10,967 nt of DNA from IMG/VR virus record IMGVR_UViG_2541047881_000003, one strand, 5' to 3'. Shown piece after piece: positions 1-10,967 of the stretch. Position 1 is the stretch's first letter. Each line of letters begins with the position of its first letter. The translations under genes were made by a program, and so were the position numbers. This DNA is from a virus (taxonomy: Duplodnaviria > Heunggongvirae > Uroviricota > Caudoviricetes). The notes below the pieces were generated by a model. It did not search any database and had not been told where the DNA came from. It saw only the letters and a program-made list of their open reading frames with translations.

Positions 1-1284
1 TTACAGACTTCTGGAAGGTTGCGCAGCTCTTACAACACGCGGTTGATCTTCCGCAGCGTCTTCCAGCGCACTTAAATCACGGTCTTTCACCTCTGGCATT
101 TTCAGCGCAGAGATTAAACCAATCACTGAATATGCCATGATCATAATGGCGATCGGATACCAGGATTCCGTCATGGTGCAGAAAATACCCGCCAGGATAG
201 GACCAAAACCGGAAGCGATAAGACCACCAATTTCTTTAGAAATAGCCATCCGGGTAAAGCGGTTTTTACAGCCGAACATTTCTGCCATGGTAATGTTTTC
301 CAGAGCAAATAATCCCAGCACCGCACAGTTATGAATCACAATCAGTGCAACCATAATGGTGCTCGGGGCATAGCTTTTATCTACAATGATAGAAAGCATT
401 GGCCATGCCAGCACAATCGCGGAGGTATTCATAATAATATACGGGATCCGGCGACCAATTTTATCGGATAACCAACCAAGGAACGGAATGGTCATAAAGC
501 CGAGAATCGAACTGATCATCAATGCATCTGTTGGAATTGCTTTGTTAAACAATAACGTCTGCACTAAATAGCCTGCAAGGAAAGTCTGAATTAACCCGGA
601 GTTACCCGCCTGACCAAAACGCAGCCCTGTTGCCAGCCAGAAGGATTTGCTCTGGAACATGCTACCAGCAGGTGCAGGTTTTGCTGTCGGTTGGTTACTG
701 TCGTTAACCTTCTCAAAGACCGGGCTTTCTTTCAGATTCATACGCAACCAGATAGCAAAGACCATCACGACAACGCTCGCCAGGAACGGTATACGCCATC
801 CCCACGCCAGCAGTTCCTCTTTACTGAGAATGAAGAACATAAAGGCCCAGATTGCCGTTGCGCTCAAGGTTCCGCAGTTAGTTCCCATAGCCACAAATGA
901 GGAGATAATTCCGCGCTTACCTTTTGGCGCATATTCCGCCAGCATCGTACCGGCACCGGAAATTTCCGCACCTGCACCCAACCCCTGAATAATACGCAAC
1001 GTCACCAGCAAGATGGGTGCAAAAACACCAATCTGTGCATAGGTCGGTAACACACCAATTAAGGTGGTACAGATCCCCATCATGGTGATGGTAATAAAGA
1101 GCACTTTTTTACGCCCTATTCTGTCGCCCATTTTGCCGAAAATAAATGCTCCGACAATACGCGCCACATAACCTGCACCGTAGGTTCCCATTGCCAGAAT
1201 TAACGCCATTGCCGTTGATGATTCAGGAAAAAATATTTCATGAAACACTAACGCTGCGCCGAGCGAATATAACTGGAAATCCAT
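1..1284 (-). CDS. ydfJ: MFS transporter of the metabolite:H+ symporter (MHS) family, YdfJ-like; appears N-terminally truncated relative to paralogs such as KgtP/ProP, consistent with a prophage insertion boundary near 1285
   Basis: 427-aa ORF with multiple hydrophobic helices and MHS-like motifs (GKMGDRIGRKK loop, WGWRIPF, LSDKIGRR); stop codon at 1..3; the protein begins directly in the region that aligns to the first TM helix of MHS transporters. Confidence 0.85.
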   Translation of the reverse strand: MDFQLYSLGAALVFHEIFFPESSTAMALILAMGTYGAGYVARIVGAFIFGKMGDRIGRKKVLFITITMMGICTTLIGVLPTYAQIGVFAPILLVTLRIIQGLGAGAEISGAGTMLAEYAPKGKRGIISSFVAMGTNCGTLSATAIWAFMFFILSKEELLAWGWRIPFLASVVVMVFAIWLRMNLKESPVFEKVNDSNQPTAKPAPAGSMFQSKSFWLATGLRFGQAGNSGLIQTFLAGYLVQTLLFNKAIPTDALMISSILGFMTIPFLGWLSDKIGRRIPYIIMNTSAIVLAWPMLSIIVDKSYAPSTIMVALIVIHNCAVLGLFALENITMAEMFGCKNRFTRMAISKEIGGLIASGFGPILAGIFCTMTESWYPIAIMIMAYSVIGLISALKMPEVKDRDLSALEDAAEDQPRVVRAAQPSRSL

Positions 1285-1886
1285 AATTCACAGGTGTTTT
1301 TTCCCATCCTGTGGTTTCCTTGGCGTTTTCTAGGTTTTTTCAGATAGTTGCATTTTTTTAAAAGCATCCTAAGTTCGATCTCAGTGTCTATCTGGGGCCT
1401 ATTTCTGTCCCATATATGCCCCAAAAAACTCCCCAACAGATAAGTAGTTTTTTCATGGATTTACGCGTAAAATCAATAACGGCTGGAAATCATTCAATAC
1501 TCGCACTATCGAAAAATTTACCAGCCAACCGCAGCACTTTCTTGCATAAGGCGTGTCTGCGGTTTTTCAACTATTCAGATACATCACTCCCATCACATTC
1601 ATTCCTCCGCATCAAAGGCATATAGGCTATATCACCTTGATATTTTTCTTCTTCAGATAAAAATTGTTATCTATGTATACTTTTAAACCCAATCCGTGTA
1701 GAGTCTCTGCATAAGATAGTTTGCAGTTGCCACTTCAGATTGCGCCATAAACCGCCTGATTTTTGCCGCCACCTGTTAGCATTCCTGTATACCTGAAACG
1801 ACAATGTTTATCTACGAACTTTAAGAACACCCAAGATAAAAATTGTCAACTATATCATATATAACACATTACTAATTCGAGGCTAT

Positions 1887-2000
1887 ATGAACAGCATACT
1901 GATAATCACTTCTCTCCTTATCATATTCAGCATTTTTAGTCATGCCCTAATAAAATTAGGGATTGGCATATCCAATAACCCAGACAAAACCGATGTATAA
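1887..2000 (+). CDS. hypothetical small hydrophobic peptide (37 aa, [37 protein letters not shown]), single predicted TM helix
   Basis: ATG preceded by GAGG (1879-1882); uninterrupted hydrophobic stretch then polar tail; lies 69 nt upstream of the ydfK start; not in the supplied ORF track (too short); rare ATA codons reduce confidence. Confidence 0.25.
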
Positions 2001-2068
2001 GTCAACATATCCTGAATCAGACATACAATATCGCAATGAAAATCAATAATATTTTAAGGAATATCTTC

Positions 2069-2302
2069 ATGAAATCAAAAGACACCCTAAAGTGGTTCCC
2101 TGCGCAGCTTCCTGAAGTAAGAATTATCCTAGGGGATGCTGTAGTGGAAGTAGCAAAACAGGGAAGACCTATCAATACCAGAACATTGCTTGATTACATT
2201 GAAGGAAACATAAAGAAAAAATCATGGCTGGATAACAAAGAATTATTACAAACAGCGATATCAGTTCTTAAAGACAACCAAAATTTAAATGGTAAAATGT
2301 AA
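2069..2302 (+). CDS. ydfK: YdfK/YnaE-family cold-shock-induced prophage protein (77 aa)
   Basis: ORF track frame 2036..2302; internal ATG at 2069 has SD AAGGA (2056-2060) at 8 nt spacing whereas ATG 2036 has none; position between ydfJ and the pin gene matches Qin gene order. Confidence 0.7.
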   Translation: MKSKDTLKWFPAQLPEVRIILGDAVVEVAKQGRPINTRTLLDYIEGNIKKKSWLDNKELLQTAISVLKDNQNLNGKM

Positions 2303-2618
2303 TATAACAAACTTACTTTTTTATCATTTTTCCACTTTAACAACATTTTGCTCCACTTTTCCACGACCAAACAAATTGAAATCTGGTTAAAATAACACGC
2401 AACACTATTCTTCTTCCTTGAGTCTGCCCGGAACTCGAAAAACAAACCGAGTTAAAGCCATTTTTCACAAAATCGATTTTGGGTCTCACCAAAATTACGG
2501 GGTTGCATACGCATTCGTTTATTTTCGAACGTGTACATACAAATATGCACAAAAATAATCAAAATTATTTTCTGAGATGCATTATGATATGAACACCAAT
2601 TTCGTATAGAGTCTCACT

Positions 2619-2785
2619 ATGTCTCGAATTTTTGCTTACTGTCGGATATCAACGCTGGATCAGACCACCGAAAATCAACGCCGGGAAATCGAAAGTGCAG
2701 GTTTTAAAATCAAACCTCAGCAAATAATCGAAGAACACATTAGCGGCTCAGCAGCAACCAGTGAGCGTCCTGGTTTTAACCGGTT
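2619..2785 (+). pseudogene. pinQ: Pin-type serine recombinase (DNA invertase) 5' fragment, about 55 codons, truncated by IS3
   Basis: N-terminus [29 protein letters not shown] carries the serine-recombinase catalytic motif (Y-x-R-[IV]-S-T-x-x-Q); the reading frame runs into the IS3 left inverted repeat at 2786 and stops inside it. Confidence 0.8.
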
Positions 2786-2841
2786 TGATCTTACCCAGCA
2801 ATAGTGGACACGCGGCTAAGTGAGTAAACTCTCAGTCAGAG

Positions 2842-3150
2842 GTGACTCACATGACAAAAACAGTATCAACCAGTAAAAAACCCCGTAAACAGCATTCGCC
2901 TGAATTTCGCAGTGAAGCCCTGAAGCTTGCTGAACGCATCGGTGTTACTGCCGCAGCCCGTGAACTCAGCCTGTATGAATCACAACTCTACAACTGGCGC
3001 AGTAAACAGCAAAATCAGCAGACGTCTTCTGAACGTGAACTGGAGATGTCTACCGAGATTGCACGTCTCAAACGCCAGCTGGCAGAACGGGATGAAGAGC
3101 TGGCTATCCTCCAAAAGGCCGCGACATACTTCGCGAAGCGCCTGAAATGA
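2842..3150 (+). CDS. insE: IS3 transposase OrfA (helix-turn-helix / leucine zipper)
   Basis: 102-aa [35 protein letters not shown]...; ends 4 nt after the orfB start; slippery A-AAA-G at 3113-3117. Confidence 0.9.
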
Positions 3151-4013
3151 AGTATGTCTTTATTGAAAAACATCAGGCTGAGTTCAGCATCAAAGCAATG
3201 TGCCGCGTGCTCCGGGTGGCCCGCAGCGGCTGGTATACGTGGTGTCAGCGGCGGACAAGGATAAGCACGCGTCAGCAGTTCCGCCAACACTGCGACAGCG
3301 TTGTCCTCGCGGCTTTTACCCGGTCAAAACAGCGTTACGGTGCCCCACGCCTGACGGATGAACTGCGTGCTCAGGGTTACCCCTTTAACGTAAAAACCGT
3401 GGCGGCAAGCCTGCGCCGTCAGGGACTGAGGGCAAAGGCCTCCCGGAAGTTCAGCCCGGTCAGCTACCGCGCACACGGCCTGCCTGTGTCAGAAAATCTG
3501 TTGGAGCAGGATTTTTACGCCAGTGGCCCGAACCAGAAGTGGGCAGGAGACATCACGTACTTACGTACAGATGAAGGCTGGCTGTATCTGGCAGTGGTCA
3601 TTGACCTGTGGTCACGTGCCGTTATTGGCTGGTCAATGTCGCCACGCATGACGGCGCAACTGGCCTGCGATGCCCTGCAGATGGCGCTGTGGCGGCGTAA
3701 GAGGCCCCGGAACGTTATCGTTCACACGGACCGTGGAGGCCAGTACTGTTCAGCAGATTATCAGGCGCAACTGAAGCGGCATAATCTGCGTGGAAGTATG
3801 AGCGCAAAAGGTTGCTGCTACGATAATGCCTGCGTGGAAAGCTTCTTTCATTCGCTGAAAGTGGAATGTATCCATGGAGAACACTTTATCAGCCGGGAAA
3901 TAATGCGGGCAACGGTGTTTAATTATATCGAATGTGATTACAATCGGTGGCGGCGGCACAGTTGGTGTGGCGGCCTCAGTCCGGAACAATTTGAAAACAA
4001 GAACCTCGCTTAG
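3147..4013 (+). CDS. insF: IS3 transposase OrfB (DDE catalytic domain); normally expressed as an OrfAB fusion by -1 frameshift
   Basis: 288-aa ORF in the -1 frame relative to orfA; IS3-family transposase sequence (…[33 protein letters not shown]…[10 protein letters not shown]…). Confidence 0.9.
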
Positions 4014-4174
4014 GCCTGTGTCCATATTACGTGGGTAGGATCAATTGTAAATTCACCTAATTACGAGGACATTGCAGTAGTTGAATTGCAGCTCTGTATT
4101 AGCCTGACAGTGACAGAATGCGATATTGACTCTGTCACAGGTGAAATAGTTTGAATGATTAGCAGTTATGGTGC

Positions 4175-4381
4175 TCAGTCAACCACCAGGGAATAATCCT
4201 TCGAATTCTTATCGTGCTTCACCAACGCTGCCTCAATTGCCCTGAATGCTTCCAGAGACACCTGATGTTCTATACATGCAATTACAACATCCGGGTAACT
4301 CATAGAAATGGTGCTATTAAGCATATTTTTTACACGAATCAGATCCAACGAGAGTTCATCAGCAGATTGTTCTTTATTCAT
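4175..4381 (-). CDS. ynfO: hypothetical small acidic prophage protein (68 aa), YnfO-like by position
   Basis: ORF with GGAG 7 nt upstream of ATG at 4381; sits upstream of and divergent from the ydfO-like gene as in Qin; symbol assigned by synteny, not by sequence recall. Confidence 0.55.
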
Positions 4382-4681
4382 TTTGTCGCTCCATGCGTTT
4401 GCTCGTCATCTAGCGGTTAAAATATTACTTCAAATCTTACTGCATAAAAGAGGAAAAGTATGAAAGTTTGAGTACATCGACCTTACATACATCTGTCGGT
4501 TGCATATCCCTCCTGGATGCCAGCAAGGCTCAATTTTGTTACGCAATCAACACTATTCATCAAAAACAGGCTTAATATTTGACATAAATCATCAACAAAA
4601 CACAAAGAGGTCAGACCAGATTGAAACAATAAACACGATAATGCTAACTACGCGCCATCGTATCACATGGAAGGTTTACCA

Positions 4682-5092
4682 ATGGCTCAGGCTGCCATTT
4701 TTAAAGAAATATTCGATCAAGTGCGTAAAGATTTAAACTGTGAATTATTTTATTCTGAGCTAAAACGTCACAATGTCTCACTTTATATTTACTATTTAGC
4801 CACAGATAATATTCACATTGTGTTAGAAAACGACAACATAGTGTTAGTAAAAGGACTCAAAAAGGTTGTAAATGTTAAATTCTCCAGAAACAAACATCTT
4901 ATAGAGACCTCCTATAATAAGTTGAAATCAAAAGAAATCACATTTCAACAATACAGGGAAAATCTTGCTAAAGCAGGAGTTTTCCGATGGGTTACAAATA
5001 TCCAGGAACACCAAAGATATTACTATGCCTTTGATAACTCATTACTATTTACTGAAAGCATCCAGAAAACTACACAGATCTTACCACGCTAA
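4682..5092 (+). CDS. ydfO: hypothetical prophage protein, YdfO/YbcV-like (136 aa)
   Basis: ORF track frame 4667..5092; ATG at 4682 is preferred because GGAAGG (4669-4674) sits 7 nt upstream; followed by gnsB on the opposite strand as in Qin. Confidence 0.6.
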
Positions 5093-5886: not shown

Positions 5887-6090
5887 CATTTTCACTTTTT
5901 TAAATCCAACGACAGACGGCTGGCATTTAAGTATTGTGAAATATTATCAAATGTAATCATCATTGATTTACAAAAGATACATTTTGCCCCGAAAGGATTC
6001 ATGTCAGAAACATCAAAAGATGATGTTCTATACTGGGAACCATGACAACACGGGCATCTAAAGTGAATATGGTTTGTAATATTGTCTACC

Positions 6091-6303
6091 TCAAAGCGCC
6101 ACTACATGAACAGCGGCAGGACCTTTAGGTCCGTTCTCAATACCAAATTCAACTTCCTGATTCTCAGTTAATGTTTTGAAATCGTTGCTCTGAATTGCTG
6201 AGAAATGGACAAACACATCTTTGCTGCCATCTTTCGGCGTGATGAAACCAAAACCTTTTTCAGGGTTAAACCATTTCACTAAACCAGTCATTTTGTTAGA
6301 CAT
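6091..6303 (-). CDS. cspI: cold shock protein, CspA family (70 aa)
   Basis: [38 protein letters not shown]… with RNP1 (KGFGFI) and RNP2 (VFVHF) motifs; C-terminal half matches CspI rather than CspA/CspB; long AT-rich leader upstream (6304-6665). Confidence 0.9.
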
Positions 6304-6665
6304 AATTATTACCTTTTGAAGAAATTAGCCCTTGGGCAGAATGGTCCGAAAAAAAATATCAGAGAGAAAAACCAACAAGGAAATCTCAAGAGGTACAAAT
6401 AATAAAATTATAACAATGACTGCTTCAGATAAATTTGTAACAAACCAGAACACCATTAACGCATGATTAACCACCCATAGCAAGGATTACTTTTGTAAAG
6501 AAAAACACAGCAATGAAAGAATAGCTTTATTTATTAATAAAACGTGTCATTCTGATTAAGACCTTTTATCTTACCCTTAAGATTTCAGGAATTTTGGCTC
6601 ATGGAAGAGTCCTTTTTATTTAAATTTTACATTCCGCGATGTAAATGTTCCGATTTAATATTACC

Positions 6666-7689
<1,024 letters not shown>

Positions 7690-7693
<4 letters not shown>

Positions 7694-8001
7694 ATATATT
7701 TATGATGAGGACGCTCGTGCTTATTGGCAGGATTTTCAATCTTAAAGGAGTACTGATGCTGCAGATAAGACTCAACTTTTTCTGACAATTTTTCTGCTAC
7801 TTCCAGGAAGACTTGCCGGACGCTCCTTCTGGCTGCTGCCTCATAAAACTCCAGCGCAGCTCCTTCAACACGGTCCATGGCGACATCCAGGTCAAAAATT
7901 TCACCGTCAAAGCGTTCCTTGTCCTGTAAGGCTACAGTTACCGTAACTTTATTCTCAAAATTACGGACTCCTTTCACAACCAGTTCATAGTCTTGAGTCA
8001 T
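7690..8001 (-). CDS. ydfR: YdfR-like prophage protein of unknown function (103 aa), between holin and endolysin
   Basis: ORF with strong SD (GAGGAGAG) upstream of ATG 8001; translationally coupled to the endolysin; position matches Qin order rrrQ-ydfR-essQ. Confidence 0.7.
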
Positions 8002-8005
8002 TGGA

Positions 8006-8221
8006 TTACTCTCCTCTCGCAGCCTTACGCCTGTCTTCTTTAATCTTGAAATAAAGATTTGTCAGATACGTCAGCAGGCCAAAAACCAGGCTACCCAGCA
8101 CACCGATTGCAGCCCACTGTGACGGAGTTACTTTATCGAGTAACTGTAATGCCCAGAAACCAGCATTACCCGCCGATGTGCCATAGGCAACACCTGTTGT
8201 TAACTTATCCATTGATTTCAT
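8006..8221 (-). CDS. essQ: class II holin, phage 21 S-like pinholin with dual-start motif (71 aa)
   Basis: [71 protein letters not shown]: two TM segments, Met1-Lys2-x-Met4 dual start, charged C-terminus; the ORF-track extension to 8299 is not used. Confidence 0.85.
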
Positions 8222-8441
8222 ATCCTCACCCCGATGTACACGGATGGTGCAATATGTTTGAAAAAGATCGGAGTCTACGGGGTAGTTTTGACAGCACACG
8301 TTGTTCTCAACGGCGCTAAAGAAACATACACATTAAAAATGTGAGTAATTATTTTGAAAGAAAGTCATATATAAAATAATAATACGAGAAATGTTTTCAT
8401 ATTTAGTGTACTGTATACGGCCATTTATACAGGAAAAGCCT

Positions 8442-8612
8442 ATGTCAGAACGTAAAGACTCAAAATCACGCCGTAATTATCTCGTTAAATGTTCCTGCCC
8501 AAACTGCACCCAAGAGTCAGAACACAGTTTTTCAAGAGTACAAAAAGGTGCCCTTTTGATCTGCCCTCATTGCAACAAAGTATTCCAGACAAATCTTAAA
8601 GCTGTAGCCTGA
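8442..8612 (+). CDS. ynfU: small zinc-ribbon protein (56 aa) with CxCPNC…CPHC motif; possibly YnfU-like
   Basis: ORF track frame 8391..8612; ATG 8442 has AGGA 7 nt upstream; four-cysteine Cys-x2-Cys…Cys-x2-Cys arrangement; symbol is a tentative recollection. Confidence 0.45.
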   Translation: MSERKDSKSRRNYLVKCSCPNCTQESEHSFSRVQKGALLICPHCNKVFQTNLKAVA

Positions 8613-8670: not shown

Positions 8671-8694
8671 TAAAAAACCCGCCTGTGCGGGTTT
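8671..8694 (-). terminator. intrinsic terminator (ACCCGC-CUGU-GCGGGU hairpin with U6 on the minus strand); weaker on the plus strand downstream of the zinc-ribbon ORF
   Basis: Inverted repeat cccgc/gcggg with 4-nt loop, flanked by an A-run on the plus strand (T-run on minus). Confidence 0.55.
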
Positions 8695-9035
8695 GAGATT
8701 GTGGTGCTTTTTGTGGGAGTCATCCACTTACGCACTTTGTTTTGCGATGCCAGCAGTTAGCTTCTGCTGTGAAACTATTCATGCAGCAAACCTGCACTTC
8801 ACCACAATGGTTAGCATACTTTTCCTGATTAAGATTTTGCCAAATATGCTAGCCATTGTTTCATGTATTGGACCTCCTTACTTTTTATTAAAGAGATCCA
8901 ATATTCACTACTCTGTCCGTATCTCTACTCAGGCATCAGCCTTCTTCGTTATCGTATACAGACGAGCGATGAATTTTAATCAGTAATGATGACATTTGCT
9001 GCTGCAGGACCTTTAGCACCACTCTCTATAGAGAA

Positions 9036-9044
9036 GGTAACCTT
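9036..9044. repeat. IS1 target-site duplication, left copy (GGTAACCTT)
   Basis: Identical 9-mer immediately flanks both IS1 ends. Confidence 0.85.
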
Positions 9045-9099
9045 GGTGATGCTGCCAACTTACTGATTTAGTGTATGATGGTGTTTTTGAGGTGCTCCA

Positions 9100-9375
9100 G
9101 TGGCTTCTGTTTCTATCAGCTGTCCCTCCTGTTCAGCTACTGACGGGGTGGTGCGTAACGGCAAAAGCACCGCCGGACATCAGCGCTATCTCTGCTCTCA
9201 CTGCCGTAAAACATGGCAACTGCAGTTCACTTACACCGCTTCTCAACCCGGTACGCACCAGAAAATCATTGATATGGCCATGAATGGCGTTGGATGCCGG
9301 GCAACTGCCCGCATTATGGGCGTTGGCCTCAACACGATTTTACGTCACTTAAAAAACTCAGGCCGCAGTCGGTAA
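9100..9375 (+). CDS. insA: IS1 InsA (transposition regulator, zinc finger/HTH)
   Basis: 91-aa [43 protein letters not shown]…. Confidence 0.9.
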
Positions 9376-9797
9376 CCTCGCGCATACAGCCGGGCAGTGA
9401 CGTCATCGTCTGCGCGGAAATGGACGAACAGTGGGGCTATGTCGGGGCTAAATCGCGCCAGCGCTGGCTGTTTTACGCGTATGACAGGCTCCGGAAGACG
9501 GTTGTTGCGCACGTATTCGGTGAACGCACGATGGCGACGCTGGGGCGTCTTATGAGCCTGCTGTCACCCTTTGACGTGGTGATATGGATGACGGATGGCT
9601 GGCCGCTGTATGAATCCCGCCTGAAGGGAAAGCTGCACGTAATCAGCAAGCGATATACGCAGCGAATTGAGCGGCATAACCTGAATCTGAGGCAGCACCT
9701 GGCACGGCTGGGACGGAAGTCGCTGTCGTTCTCAAAATCGGTGGAGCTGCATGACAAAGTCATCGGGCATTATCTGAACATAAAACACTATCAATAA
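9294..9797 (+). CDS. insB: IS1 InsB (transposase catalytic part; expressed as InsAB' by -1 frameshift)
   Basis: 167-aa ORF in the -1 frame relative to insA; A6C slippery run at 9351-9357. Confidence 0.9.
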
Positions 9798-9812
9798 GTT
9801 GGAGTCATTACC

Positions 9813-9821
9813 GGTAACCTT
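9813..9821. repeat. IS1 target-site duplication, right copy (GGTAACCTT)
   Basis: Identical 9-mer immediately flanks both IS1 ends. Confidence 0.85.
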
Positions 9822-10266
9822 TTGACCTTCAAATAAGGTTCGATAATTATCATTCTGAATCGCAGAAAAATGCACAAACACATCTTTACTACCATCAACA
9901 GGAGAAATAAAGCCGAAACCTTTATCAGCGTTAAACCATTTTACTAAACCAGTCATTTTATTTGACATTCTACATTCCTTAACTTGAGCCTTTCGGCATA
10001 AATGGTTTGCATAACAGAAACGACTTCGTACTTAATTGGAGAGACTCAAAGAAGGAATAAGTGAATAACACCTGAAATGAGAACTGCTTTAGTAAACTAC
10101 TTCGTATATCGTCTGTTCTTCAAACCGACGCAGTCATTAACTCATAGTTGAACATATGAAGCAATGTTTATTTTAGACATCCAGCCACCTTCAATCCTAT
10201 CAAAAAAGTAGTTTTCTCCAGGAACGTGTGTATGGTGCACCAGGTTATCAGTATTAAGGAGTTTTT

Positions 10267-10480
10267 CTGTCCCCTAAAATGACAGGAATTGTCAAAAACT
10301 TTGACTACAAAAGCAGCAAAGGTCTTATATTCCCATCCGATGGCGTATCGATGCCCAGCTTCACGTTTCAGCTCTCAATCTTCGAGATGCAGAAGAAATT
10401 ACCACAGGATTACGCGTGGAATTTTGCTGGATAAATGGTTCGCGTGGACCTTCAACTGCCAATGTTTATCCCGGGATGAG
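10267..10480 (+). pseudogene. cspF: CspF/CspH-like cold shock gene, apparently inactivated (start codon position reads CTG; frameshift near 10343-10345); 3' limit approximate
   Basis: One frame gives [22 protein letters not shown], then homology continues in another frame ([10 protein letters not shown]…[21 protein letters not shown]); AAGGAG (10256-10261) is spaced for the codon at 10267, which is CTG here; relies on recalled CspF/CspH sequences. Confidence 0.55.
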
Positions 10481-10512
10481 ATTCAATATCTCTATTGCCC
10501 CATTTAAAGCAC

Positions 10513-10537
10513 AAAAACCCGCTTATAAGCGGGTTTT
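10513..10537. terminator. bidirectional intrinsic terminator (perfect palindrome AAAACCCGCTTATAAGCGGGTTTT with T-tracts on both strands); candidate tR' for the late promoter and terminator for cspF
   Basis: Perfect inverted repeat read directly; A-run upstream and T-run downstream make it functional in either direction. Confidence 0.6.
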
Positions 10538-10583
10538 CTACTTTTTTCTAAACGTCGGATACACAAAGCCCATCGTTGAGAAA

Positions 10584-10612
10584 ATCTTATCCATGTTTTT
10601 TGAAAAATGCAA
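10584..10612 (-). promoter_or_regulatory. candidate sigma70 late promoter (pR'-like) just downstream of the Q gene: -35 TTGCAT (10612-10607), 17-bp spacer, -10 TAAGAT (10589-10584)
   Basis: Hexamers found by eye on the minus strand about 50 nt upstream of the palindromic terminator; placement matches lambdoid Q-pR'-tR' architecture; hexamer matches are moderate only. Confidence 0.25.
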
Positions 10613-10643
10613 ACATCATGTCGCCATCTTCAGCAAAAATCAT

Positions 10644-10967
10644 TTATCTCGTCACCTTCCTCAATTGCGCTTCCGCGTATGCTTCTTCCTGCCAGCACTT
10701 TGTTACCAGTTTACCAATGACGTCCGCATACCCCTTATACCACTGATAATCGGTCAGGTCTGGTACCAGCTTCTGGACATGACGTCGTGCCAGCGTGGTC
10801 GGTAAACGACTAAACCGGTTTCCATTACAACGCCCACAAATCTTATATACCGGTACGCCATGAAACCGGGTTCTTTTTTCATCCAGAACAATCCCTTTAC
10901 CCTTACACCCTCTGCACGCTGTGCTGACTTCGCCCTTACCATGGCAATGCTGACATAGTTCCTTCAC
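10644..10967 (-). CDS. quuQ: late-gene antiterminator Q, C-terminal part (5' end lies beyond the window)
   Basis: Translation …[51 protein letters not shown]… has the Cys-x2-Cys…Cys-x2-Cys zinc-binding region typical of Q proteins; reading frame is open to the window edge. Confidence 0.8.

Follow-up and report, generated by a model that had tools for sequence, protein, structure and literature searches.

The window, a stretch of 10,967 nucleotides of viral DNA that was analysed at its full length, is late-region DNA from a Qin-type lambdoid prophage of E. coli or Shigella and is read here on the minus strand. Directly downstream of the Q antiterminator gene it carries a cassette of promoter, pause element and terminator (10612-10506), which is very probably the late regulatory unit of this prophage and a homologue of the Q-pR'-tR' unit of phage lambda. 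The first-pass annotation had proposed a pR'-short RNA-tR' layout at this place, and that reading is borne out by homology to lambda pR' that includes the pause element, by conservation of the module, and by an RNA 3' end at the orthologous site of K-12. The features of the Q gene and the cassette are:

10644-10967, minus strand: Q antiterminator gene, 3' part (C-terminal 107 amino acids; the rest lies beyond the window); Pfam PF03589 Antiterm, E = 5e-32
10646-10644, minus strand: Q stop codon, TAA
10612-10506, minus strand: late regulatory cassette (-35, spacer, -10, pause element, terminator)
10607-10612, minus strand: pR' -35 hexamer TTGCAT (lambda TTGACT); cTTGCA(a/t) is kept in divergent cassettes
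10590-10606, minus strand: 17-nt spacer with putative Q-binding element, TTCAAAAA...TGG
10584-10589, minus strand: pR' -10 hexamer TAAGAT (TAAAAT in K-12), aligned with lambda TAAATT; TAnnAT in 37/37 distinct cassettes
10569-10577, minus strand: predicted +1 (10577) and sigma-dependent pause element AACGAT (+1 to +6), followed by GGG
10551-10568, minus strand: conserved initial transcribed region, +10 to +27, CTTTGTGTATCCGACGTT
10506-10537, minus strand: terminator tR', with stem 10537-10528 / 10523-10514, loop TATA 10527-10524 and T tract 10513-10506 (from folding, shuffles and comparison of cassettes)
10514-10547, plus strand: tR' hairpin in the plus-strand reading, followed by CTACTTTTTT; top plus-strand terminator-like site and possible terminator for transcripts of the cspF remnant

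Promoter, pause element and terminator

The -35 hexamer begins 31 nt past the Q stop codon. Measured against the sigma-70 consensus the two hexamers match at only 7/12 positions, which is weak and not significant; a generic promoter scan of the window did not call the cassette promoter, and its 23 sites in the whole window, against 24.2 expected by chance, make it uninformative. Because a consensus match alone is no better than chance, the promoter call rests on homology. When the lambda 44-mer from the -35 hexamer to +9 of pR' was compared ungapped, anchored on the -10 hexamer (a MAFFT alignment was also made), it matched at 32/44 positions at 10612, and the next best placement in the window reached 25/44. 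Identity amounts to 4/6 in the -35 hexamer, 11/17 in the spacer, 4/6 in the -10 hexamer, 4/6 from -6 to -1, 9/9 from +1 to +9, and 4/18 from +10 to +27. The 12-mer CTCAACGATGGG is identical in lambda and the window, with AACGAT at equal distance from the -10 hexamer, and the +1 of lambda (genome position 44,587 in the alignment) has 10577 as its homologous window position. The window holds one copy of the composite pattern TTGCA-N18-TANNAT-N6-AACGAT, where 0.04 are expected, and one of AACGATGGG. Thus, the sigma70-like promoter suggested earlier is supported at the sequence level by homology to lambda pR', but could not have been established from its consensus match. A reading of the -35 hexamer as TTTGCA with an 18-nt spacer was dropped, since divergent cassettes keep TTGCAT and a 17-nt spacer.

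In lambda the Q-binding element (QBE) has a length of 13 bp, and its contacts fall on positions 1-4 and 11-13 (PMC9388147). The spacer in the window contains TTCAAAA and TGG, spaced like TTGAA...TGG of lambda and invariant in 13 divergent cassettes of this Q clade, and is a putative Q-binding site; in more distant Q clades the spacers differ from the TTCAAAA...TGG form.

The sigma-dependent pause element of lambda occupies +1 to +6 with a pause at +16/+17, and the DNA 3' of the element tunes the pause (bioRxiv 2022.01.24.477500). On the lambda model transcription would start at 10577 and a sigma-dependent pause would probably be sited in the +10 to +27 region; its position is not transferable from lambda, given that only 4 of those 18 nucleotides are identical. 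Conservation of the same region within the Q clade would be expected if the DNA past the element tunes the pause here too. Lambda also has a -35-like TTGACT that assists in placing sigma region 4 in its paused complex; this is not kept in the window, where the corresponding sequence is TTTCTC. There is no entry in Cappable-seq supplements at either genome-version coordinate of the orthologous K-12 start, nor for the K-12 locus in the RNET-seq sigma-pause supplements and text.

The perfect palindromic terminator that had been reported after Q was confirmed. It is a 24-nt palindrome, AAAACCCGCTTATAAGCGGGTTTT, at 10514-10537 with T-rich tails on both strands, and forms a hairpin whose 4-nt loop is closed by a stem of 10 pairs (11 with G.T). 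A terminator scan ranked it first among the terminator-like sites of the window, and its RNA folds at -24.2 kcal/mol (z = -3.9). Hairpins with at least 10 pairs, at least 5 of them G-C, and a T tract number 3 in the window, versus a mean of 0.02 in 200 shuffles. Relative to the predicted +1 at 10577, the hairpin starts at +40/+41 and ends at +64/+65, so that the earlier estimate of 45-65 nt past the promoter was about right. The predicted RNA 3' end is near 10509, which would make an RNA started at 10577 about 65-69 nt long.

Term-seq of K-12 MG1655 recorded a minus-strand 3' end at 1642356, listed in three tables with the class 'orphan' and scores of 103,591, 55,368 and 123,305 (Adams et al. 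2021, PMC7815308). Its context, ...GAAAACCCGCTGATGAGCGGGTTTTGTGC, lies inside the orthologous T tract, and the end falls at ...GCGGGUUUUGUGC (PMC7815308). The site is the orthologue of tR', and with a predicted +1 at 1642422 the RNA would be 67 nt long. The short minus-strand RNA that was expected to end near 10513 is thus supported in respect of its 3' end, which is compatible with a pR'-initiated RNA and with read-through of the Q mRNA alike. A further 3' end at 1644572 on the minus strand lies upstream of ydfU-ydfT (PMC7815308), so that little transcription is expected to enter from upstream. No plus-strand 3' end at the K-12 orthologue of tR' was present in the Term-seq tables.

Conservation of the cassette with its Q gene

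The full-length Q orthologue of phage Tritos belongs to PF03589 (E = 5e-54) and is 34% identical to lambda Q (E = 5e-42), with a C-terminal ...VTR common to both; DNA identical to the Q gene of the window is labelled ydfT, antitermination protein, in RefSeq. The Q families of lambda, 21 and 82 are unrelated in sequence and structure (PMC9388147). Since the Q of the window is of the PF03589 lambda family, lambda is the proper comparison, and phages 82 and 21, which had been suggested for this purpose, are the wrong reference.

The cassette was compared in 17 genome loci (Q 40-98% identical) of Escherichia, Shigella, Mangrovibacter, Kosakonia, Phytobacter, Atlantibacter, Scandinavium, Buttiauxella and Entomohabitans, together with 80 viral contigs and five phage records. 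There were 37 distinct -60 to +95 sequences out of 97 loci and phages, spanning a Q range of 40-99% identity, and they have in common cTTGCA(a/t), a 17-nt spacer with TTCAAAAA...TGG, TAnnAT, 6 nt, and AACGATGGG or a near variant. Among 13 divergent representatives, the majority fraction is 0.98 in the pause element and GGG, 0.95 in the -35 region, 0.82 from +10 to +27 (Q 63-99% identical), 0.76 between the Q stop codon and the -35 hexamer, and 0.55 in the A-rich linker before the hairpin. A hairpin and T tract end at +50 to +68 in 36 of the 37 distinct cassettes, with stem variants that keep pairing (CCCGC/GCGGG, CCTCGC/GCGGGG, GCCTCGC/GCGGGGC, ACCGC/GCGGT, and CGCC/GGCG versus CGCT/AGCG). Hairpins were judged sequence by sequence, because their loops are of unequal length and a MAFFT alignment lost the register of the 3' arm.

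The DNA 3' of the T tract varies: it consists of csp genes, of unknown ORFs and a methylase gene in SfV and Ayreon, of Stx2c-phage sequence, or of tRNA genes in the Q clade at 40% identity. Since similarity stops just past the T tract, whatever genes come next, the comparison assigns the terminator to the Q module and not to cspF.

Cassette-matching DNA is found in 2,457 of 5,426 complete E. coli genomes (about 45%), K-12 included. The Qin prophage of K-12 (ydfT-cspF-cspB-essQ) has the same cassette at the orthologous locus, with a -10 hexamer of TAAAAT and the Term-seq 3' end; it differs in having intact cspF and cspB genes and an extra 254 bp, with ynfS, between cspF and tR'. The module with this type of Q is also kept in functional phages: SfV, Ayreon, mEp460, Stx2c phages and Tritos. 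Within the group of SfV, Ayreon, mEp460, 2H10, Stx2c-converting phages and Tritos, DNA identity to the window is 86-99% over Q and the next 130 nt, and the layout of promoter, pause element and terminator is alike, the terminator being already annotated in the SfV and Ayreon records. The differences lie in the genes past tR', the hairpin loop and the linker, and in these phages being intact versus the decayed window. Tritos, a spontaneously induced, plaque-forming prophage of strain LF82 (PMC9928086), shares 99% identity with the window across Q and cassette and also its arrangement of cspF remnant and cspB; because it forms plaques, this layout is consistent with a late operon that works.

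The likeness to lambda extends to the Q family, a promoter about 30-45 nt past the Q stop codon, a 17-nt spacer with TT(C/G)AA...TGG at equal spacing, a -10 hexamer of the form TAnnAT, the 12-nt identity that includes the pause element, and an intrinsic terminator before the lysis genes. In contrast, the terminated RNA of lambda is 194 nt long versus about 67 nt here, the -35 hexamer is TTGACT versus TTGCAT, the extra -35-like TTGACT before the pause element is absent here, the +10 to +27 regions are unrelated, Q has a 48-amino-acid insertion with two extra CxxCxGxG motifs relative to lambda Q, and tR' is set apart from the holin gene by a second terminator and some 2.3 kb of DNA made up of morons and IS. 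The Q21, Q82 and Stx pR'-tR' systems work on the same plan, with a constitutive pR' and a sigma-dependent pause next to a Q gene, followed by a terminator and by morons (stx) in the late transcript; they differ in their unrelated Q protein families (PMC9388147) and in another QBE architecture.

The prophage of the window is a decayed remnant: a Pfam and ORF survey of the window detected no structural genes, and there are an IS3-family element, an IS1 inserted in cspB, and a dead cspF. Such decay would fit a fossil cassette in which the promoter or Q is inactive and the terminator alone works, on transcription from upstream, as would the -10 hexamer TAAGAT (4/6), where K-12 has TAAAAT, and the fact that Q is known here from its C-terminal 107 amino acids. 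This is nevertheless unlikely, as the -60 to +95 sequence is identical to that of 13 other loci (14 loci with the exact fragment), a single loop base distinguishes it from the cassette of the plaque-forming Tritos, and TAAGAT is also the form found in SfV, Ayreon and Stx2c phages.

Compatible with the reading as a late regulatory unit, and quite improbable in itself, is the idea that the terminated RNA, about 67 nt long, serves the prophage as a small RNA acting in trans. A precedent exists in StxS, a processed pR' transcript of Stx phages with a precursor of 258 nt that is processed to 74 nt (PMC7547250). In K-12 the 3' end is abundant during ordinary growth, and the RNA would have a conserved 5' part (+10 to +27 is kept in enterobacterial Qin-type cassettes), then an A-rich linker and a U-tailed terminator; however, the linker is poorly conserved, and the pause element and pause-tuning DNA account for the conserved 5' part. 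The intergenic region cspF.ydfT.IGR is a node in a table derived from Hfq RIL-seq, but the same table gives it an sRNA probability of 0.0024 and only 2 partners. No Rfam family matched at threshold, a permissive search of 10400-10700 returned sub-threshold, terminator-driven matches, and a duplex scan of the first 39 nt of the RNA against the window found complementarity to its own antisense strand only. If the idea holds, about 45% of complete E. coli genomes would carry a small RNA gene that has escaped annotation.

The region between tR' and the lysis genes

Past tR', the window contains a cold-shock locus interrupted by an insertion sequence, a zinc-ribbon ORF and the lysis genes:

10267-10468, plus strand: cspF pseudogene (1-nt deletion causing a frameshift; from translations and alignment with K-12)
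9969-10129, minus strand: cspB 5' UTR, a cspA-type thermoregulator (Rfam RF01766, 116.6 bits versus a gathering threshold of 78, match 10129-9801)
8976-9968, minus strand: cspB coding sequence, split by IS1 (codons 1-52 at 9968-9813; last 20 codons, 19 amino acids and the stop, at 9035-8976)
9045-9812, plus strand: IS1, 768 bp, insA/insB, with a 9-bp target duplication, AAGGTTACC, at 9821-9813 and 9044-9036
8675-8694, minus strand: second intrinsic terminator, AAACCCGCACAGGCGGGTTT then TTTATTATCT, between cspB and the holin gene (terminator scan)
8442-8612, plus strand: ynfU, zinc-ribbon ORF opposite to the late operon (Pfam PF23499 YnfU, E = 2.5e-31; K-12 annotation)
6666-8221, minus strand: lysis cassette on the late strand (Pfam PF04971, PF07041 and PF00959; ORFs; RefSeq annotation of the ATCC 25922 orthologue)
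8221-8006, minus strand: S21-type holin gene
8001-7690, minus strand: ydfR
7693-7160, minus strand: lysozyme gene
7163-6666, minus strand: Rz-like gene

The minus-strand lysis region is followed by cspI, ydfO, the IS3-family element, a pinQ remnant, ydfK and an intact ydfJ transporter gene. The csp genes and the zinc-ribbon ORF therefore have the position between tR' and the holin gene that had been ascribed to them, but cspF is a pseudogene, cspB is split, and ynfU is on the opposite strand. The notion of cold-shock morons is not new, as cspB and cspI of Tritos, transcribed at 59 and 93 times the background of the prophage, have already been described as morons (PMC9928086).

Relative to K-12, a 254-bp deletion (junction 10469/10468) has taken the last codons of cspF together with ynfS and brought the cspF remnant up against tR'. 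PGAP annotates cspF in the identical DNA of ATCC 25922 as 'frameshifted; incomplete; missing C-terminus'. A 72-amino-acid ORF at 10289-10507 was rejected as cspF, because its frame is not that of CspF and the true gene is frameshifted and truncated. The palindrome had also been regarded as the terminator of cspF; the plus-strand site is present, but this role is vestigial, since cspF here is frameshifted and 3'-truncated. In K-12 the hairpin is about 290 nt from an intact cspF, and it is also found in phages without cspF.

These relations bear on the view that the palindrome is a plain bidirectional terminator of cspF and the Q operon, with promoter hexamers that arose by chance. It would account for the cspF remnant adjoining the hairpin, for hexamers that match at 7/12 positions in a window where promoter-like sites are no commoner than chance, and for the Term-seq 3' end, which could stem from transcripts started upstream. 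It is very unlikely, however, given that the hairpin travels with Q in SfV, Ayreon and Stx2c phages that have no cspF, that K-12 keeps hairpin and cspF apart and the neighbouring cspF here is a pseudogene, and that promoter, spacer and pause element are homologous to lambda pR' (32/44) and are kept across Q proteins 40-99% identical; transcripts from upstream are, moreover, already ended in K-12 at 1644572, before ydfU-ydfT.

The cspB gene has its own promoter, upstream of about 10129, and its thermoregulator is one of two cspA thermoregulators that are the only Rfam matches at gathering thresholds in the window. A search for the IS1-cspB junction in 5,426 complete E. coli genomes gave no match. 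Between cspB and the holin gene, the second minus-strand terminator (8694-8675) is predicted to be a further site that a late transcript would need to read through. In K-12 the orthologous hairpin ends the plus-strand ynfU RNA at 1641060, and the cspB mRNA ends upstream of it, at 1641224-6 on the minus strand (PMC7815308).

A true late promoter immediately upstream of the holin gene, which would make the lysis genes independent of 10612-10506, is hardly credible: the sole promoter-like site there, which matches sigma-70 promoters at 9/12 positions and lies at 8375-8348 (minus strand), about 130 nt before the holin ATG at 8221, is of a kind found at chance frequency (23 found, 24.2 expected), shares its AT-rich region with a better, divergent plus-strand match (8354-8383) facing ynfU, and has no pause element or QBE-like motif (AACGATGGG being elsewhere), and in the SfV and Ayreon records, with the same Q cassette, a terminator annotated about 40 nt before the holin gene leaves no room for a promoter.

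Proposed operation and significance

The mechanism described for the lambda cassette (PMC9388147; bioRxiv 2022.01.24.477500) is the source of a homology-based model for the late regulatory unit of the window. Without Q, sigma-70 polymerase would start at about 10577 on the minus strand, and sigma region 2 would re-bind the -10-like AACGAT (+1 to +6, non-template strand), causing a pause within approximately the first 13-17 nt. The polymerase would then escape and terminate at the hairpin and U tract (10537-10506), producing an RNA of about 65-69 nt and leaving the lysis genes silent. With Q, the protein made from the gene just upstream would bind TTCA...TGG between the -35 and -10 hexamers and load onto the paused complex, yielding a termination-resistant polymerase. 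Such a polymerase would read in turn through tR', the antisense cspF remnant, cspB with its IS1, the terminator at 8694-8675 and the antisense ynfU before entering the holin, ydfR, endolysin and Rz genes and cspI. In the decayed prophage of the window, the cassette probably now serves to produce the short RNA and to hold the lysis genes silent, and nothing more.

No description of the cassette was found in the literature on quuQ/ydfT and the Qin late promoter. It is an unannotated example of a textbook kind, which leaves knowledge of Q antitermination unchanged; its significance is chiefly a matter of annotation, in that a promoter, a pause element and a terminator that had been unannotated are placed in the Qin-type prophage family and the 'orphan' Term-seq 3' end at 1642356 of K-12 is accounted for. 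As a natural variant that keeps the lambda pause element exactly but has a changed -35 hexamer, QBE, post-pause region and Q zinc-binding arm, the cassette could serve comparative work on the loading of Q. For the morons, the arrangement means that cspB and cspI would lie inside the Q-dependent late transcript and yet have promoters of their own. They may also be insulated, as the short pR' RNA would stop at tR' and the cspB mRNA would end upstream of the 8694-8675 hairpin, which would form a further barrier between cspB and the holin gene.

Q protein and the initial transcribed region

10644-10967, minus strand: 3' part of the Q antiterminator gene (full length at 2572-3324 of L002, a sequence of the comparison set)
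10551-10568, minus strand: initial transcribed region, +10 to +27 from the predicted start of the pR' RNA, conserved across related cassettes

Compared with lambda Q, which has two CxxCxGxG motifs, Qin-type Q carries an insertion of 48 aa that contributes two of its four such motifs, a number also found in the zinc domain of DnaJ. The zinc 'arm' of lambda Q contacts the Q-binding element and sigma region 4 (PMC9388147); because the insertion adds two motifs, the corresponding arm of Qin-type Q should be larger. The segment from +10 to +27 is kept among cassettes whose Q proteins are 63-99% identical, and largely kept in a clade with 40%-identical Q as well, but in lambda it is dissimilar, sharing only 4 of 18 positions with the window cassette. 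This segment is tentatively read as probable pause-tuning DNA.

Sequences downstream of the tR' terminator

10267-10468, plus strand: cspF pseudogene carrying two deletions, of 1 nt and of 254 bp
About 8866-8905, minus strand: region of the cspB mRNA 3' end (K-12 counterpart 1641224-1641226, minus strand)

The 254-bp deletion, relative to K-12, removed ynfS as well as cspF sequence, and the same cspF allele is present in E. coli ATCC 25922, phage Tritos and E. ruysiae. In two viral contigs (L086 and L090), at about +62 counted from the start of the cassette, an IS1 end lies immediately 3' of the T tract of tR'. tRNA genes come after this cassette in the 40%-identity Q clade (L021-L023), an arrangement shared with Stx phages.

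Between cspB and the holin gene, K-12 Term-seq data (supplement of PMC7815308) place a very abundant cspB mRNA 3' end just past a hairpin of 11 pairs, two of them G.U, that has no U tract; such an end may reflect processing or protection of the RNA and not intrinsic termination. For the hairpin at 8675-8694 it is the minus (late) strand that carries the good T tract, and the K-12 Term-seq tables give it a plus-strand 3' end only (ynfU, 1641060), presumably because cspB transcripts end upstream of it.

Cold-shock morons and insertion sequences

6064-6449, minus strand: second cspA-type thermoregulator (RF01766, 112.8 bits)
6091-6303, minus strand: intact cspI-like gene that follows the Rz genes
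1-1284, minus strand: intact ydfJ (MFS transporter)
2842-4013: IS3-family element
9045-9812: IS1 in cspB, with target duplications at 9813-9821 and 9036-9044

The second thermoregulator sits ahead of the cspI-like gene, which adds a further cold-shock moron to the late strand. Only a remnant of the prophage is left, with ydfJ, ydfK, a pinQ fragment and the IS3-family element occupying positions 1-4700 in place of structural and tail genes. IS1 interrupts the cspB reading frame behind codon 52 and is flanked by a 9-bp duplication of its target (AAGGTTACC); the IS1-cspB junction was found in none of the 5,426 complete E. coli genomes searched. Together with the IS3-family element, this unmatched insertion suggests a source rich in insertion sequences, Shigella for example.
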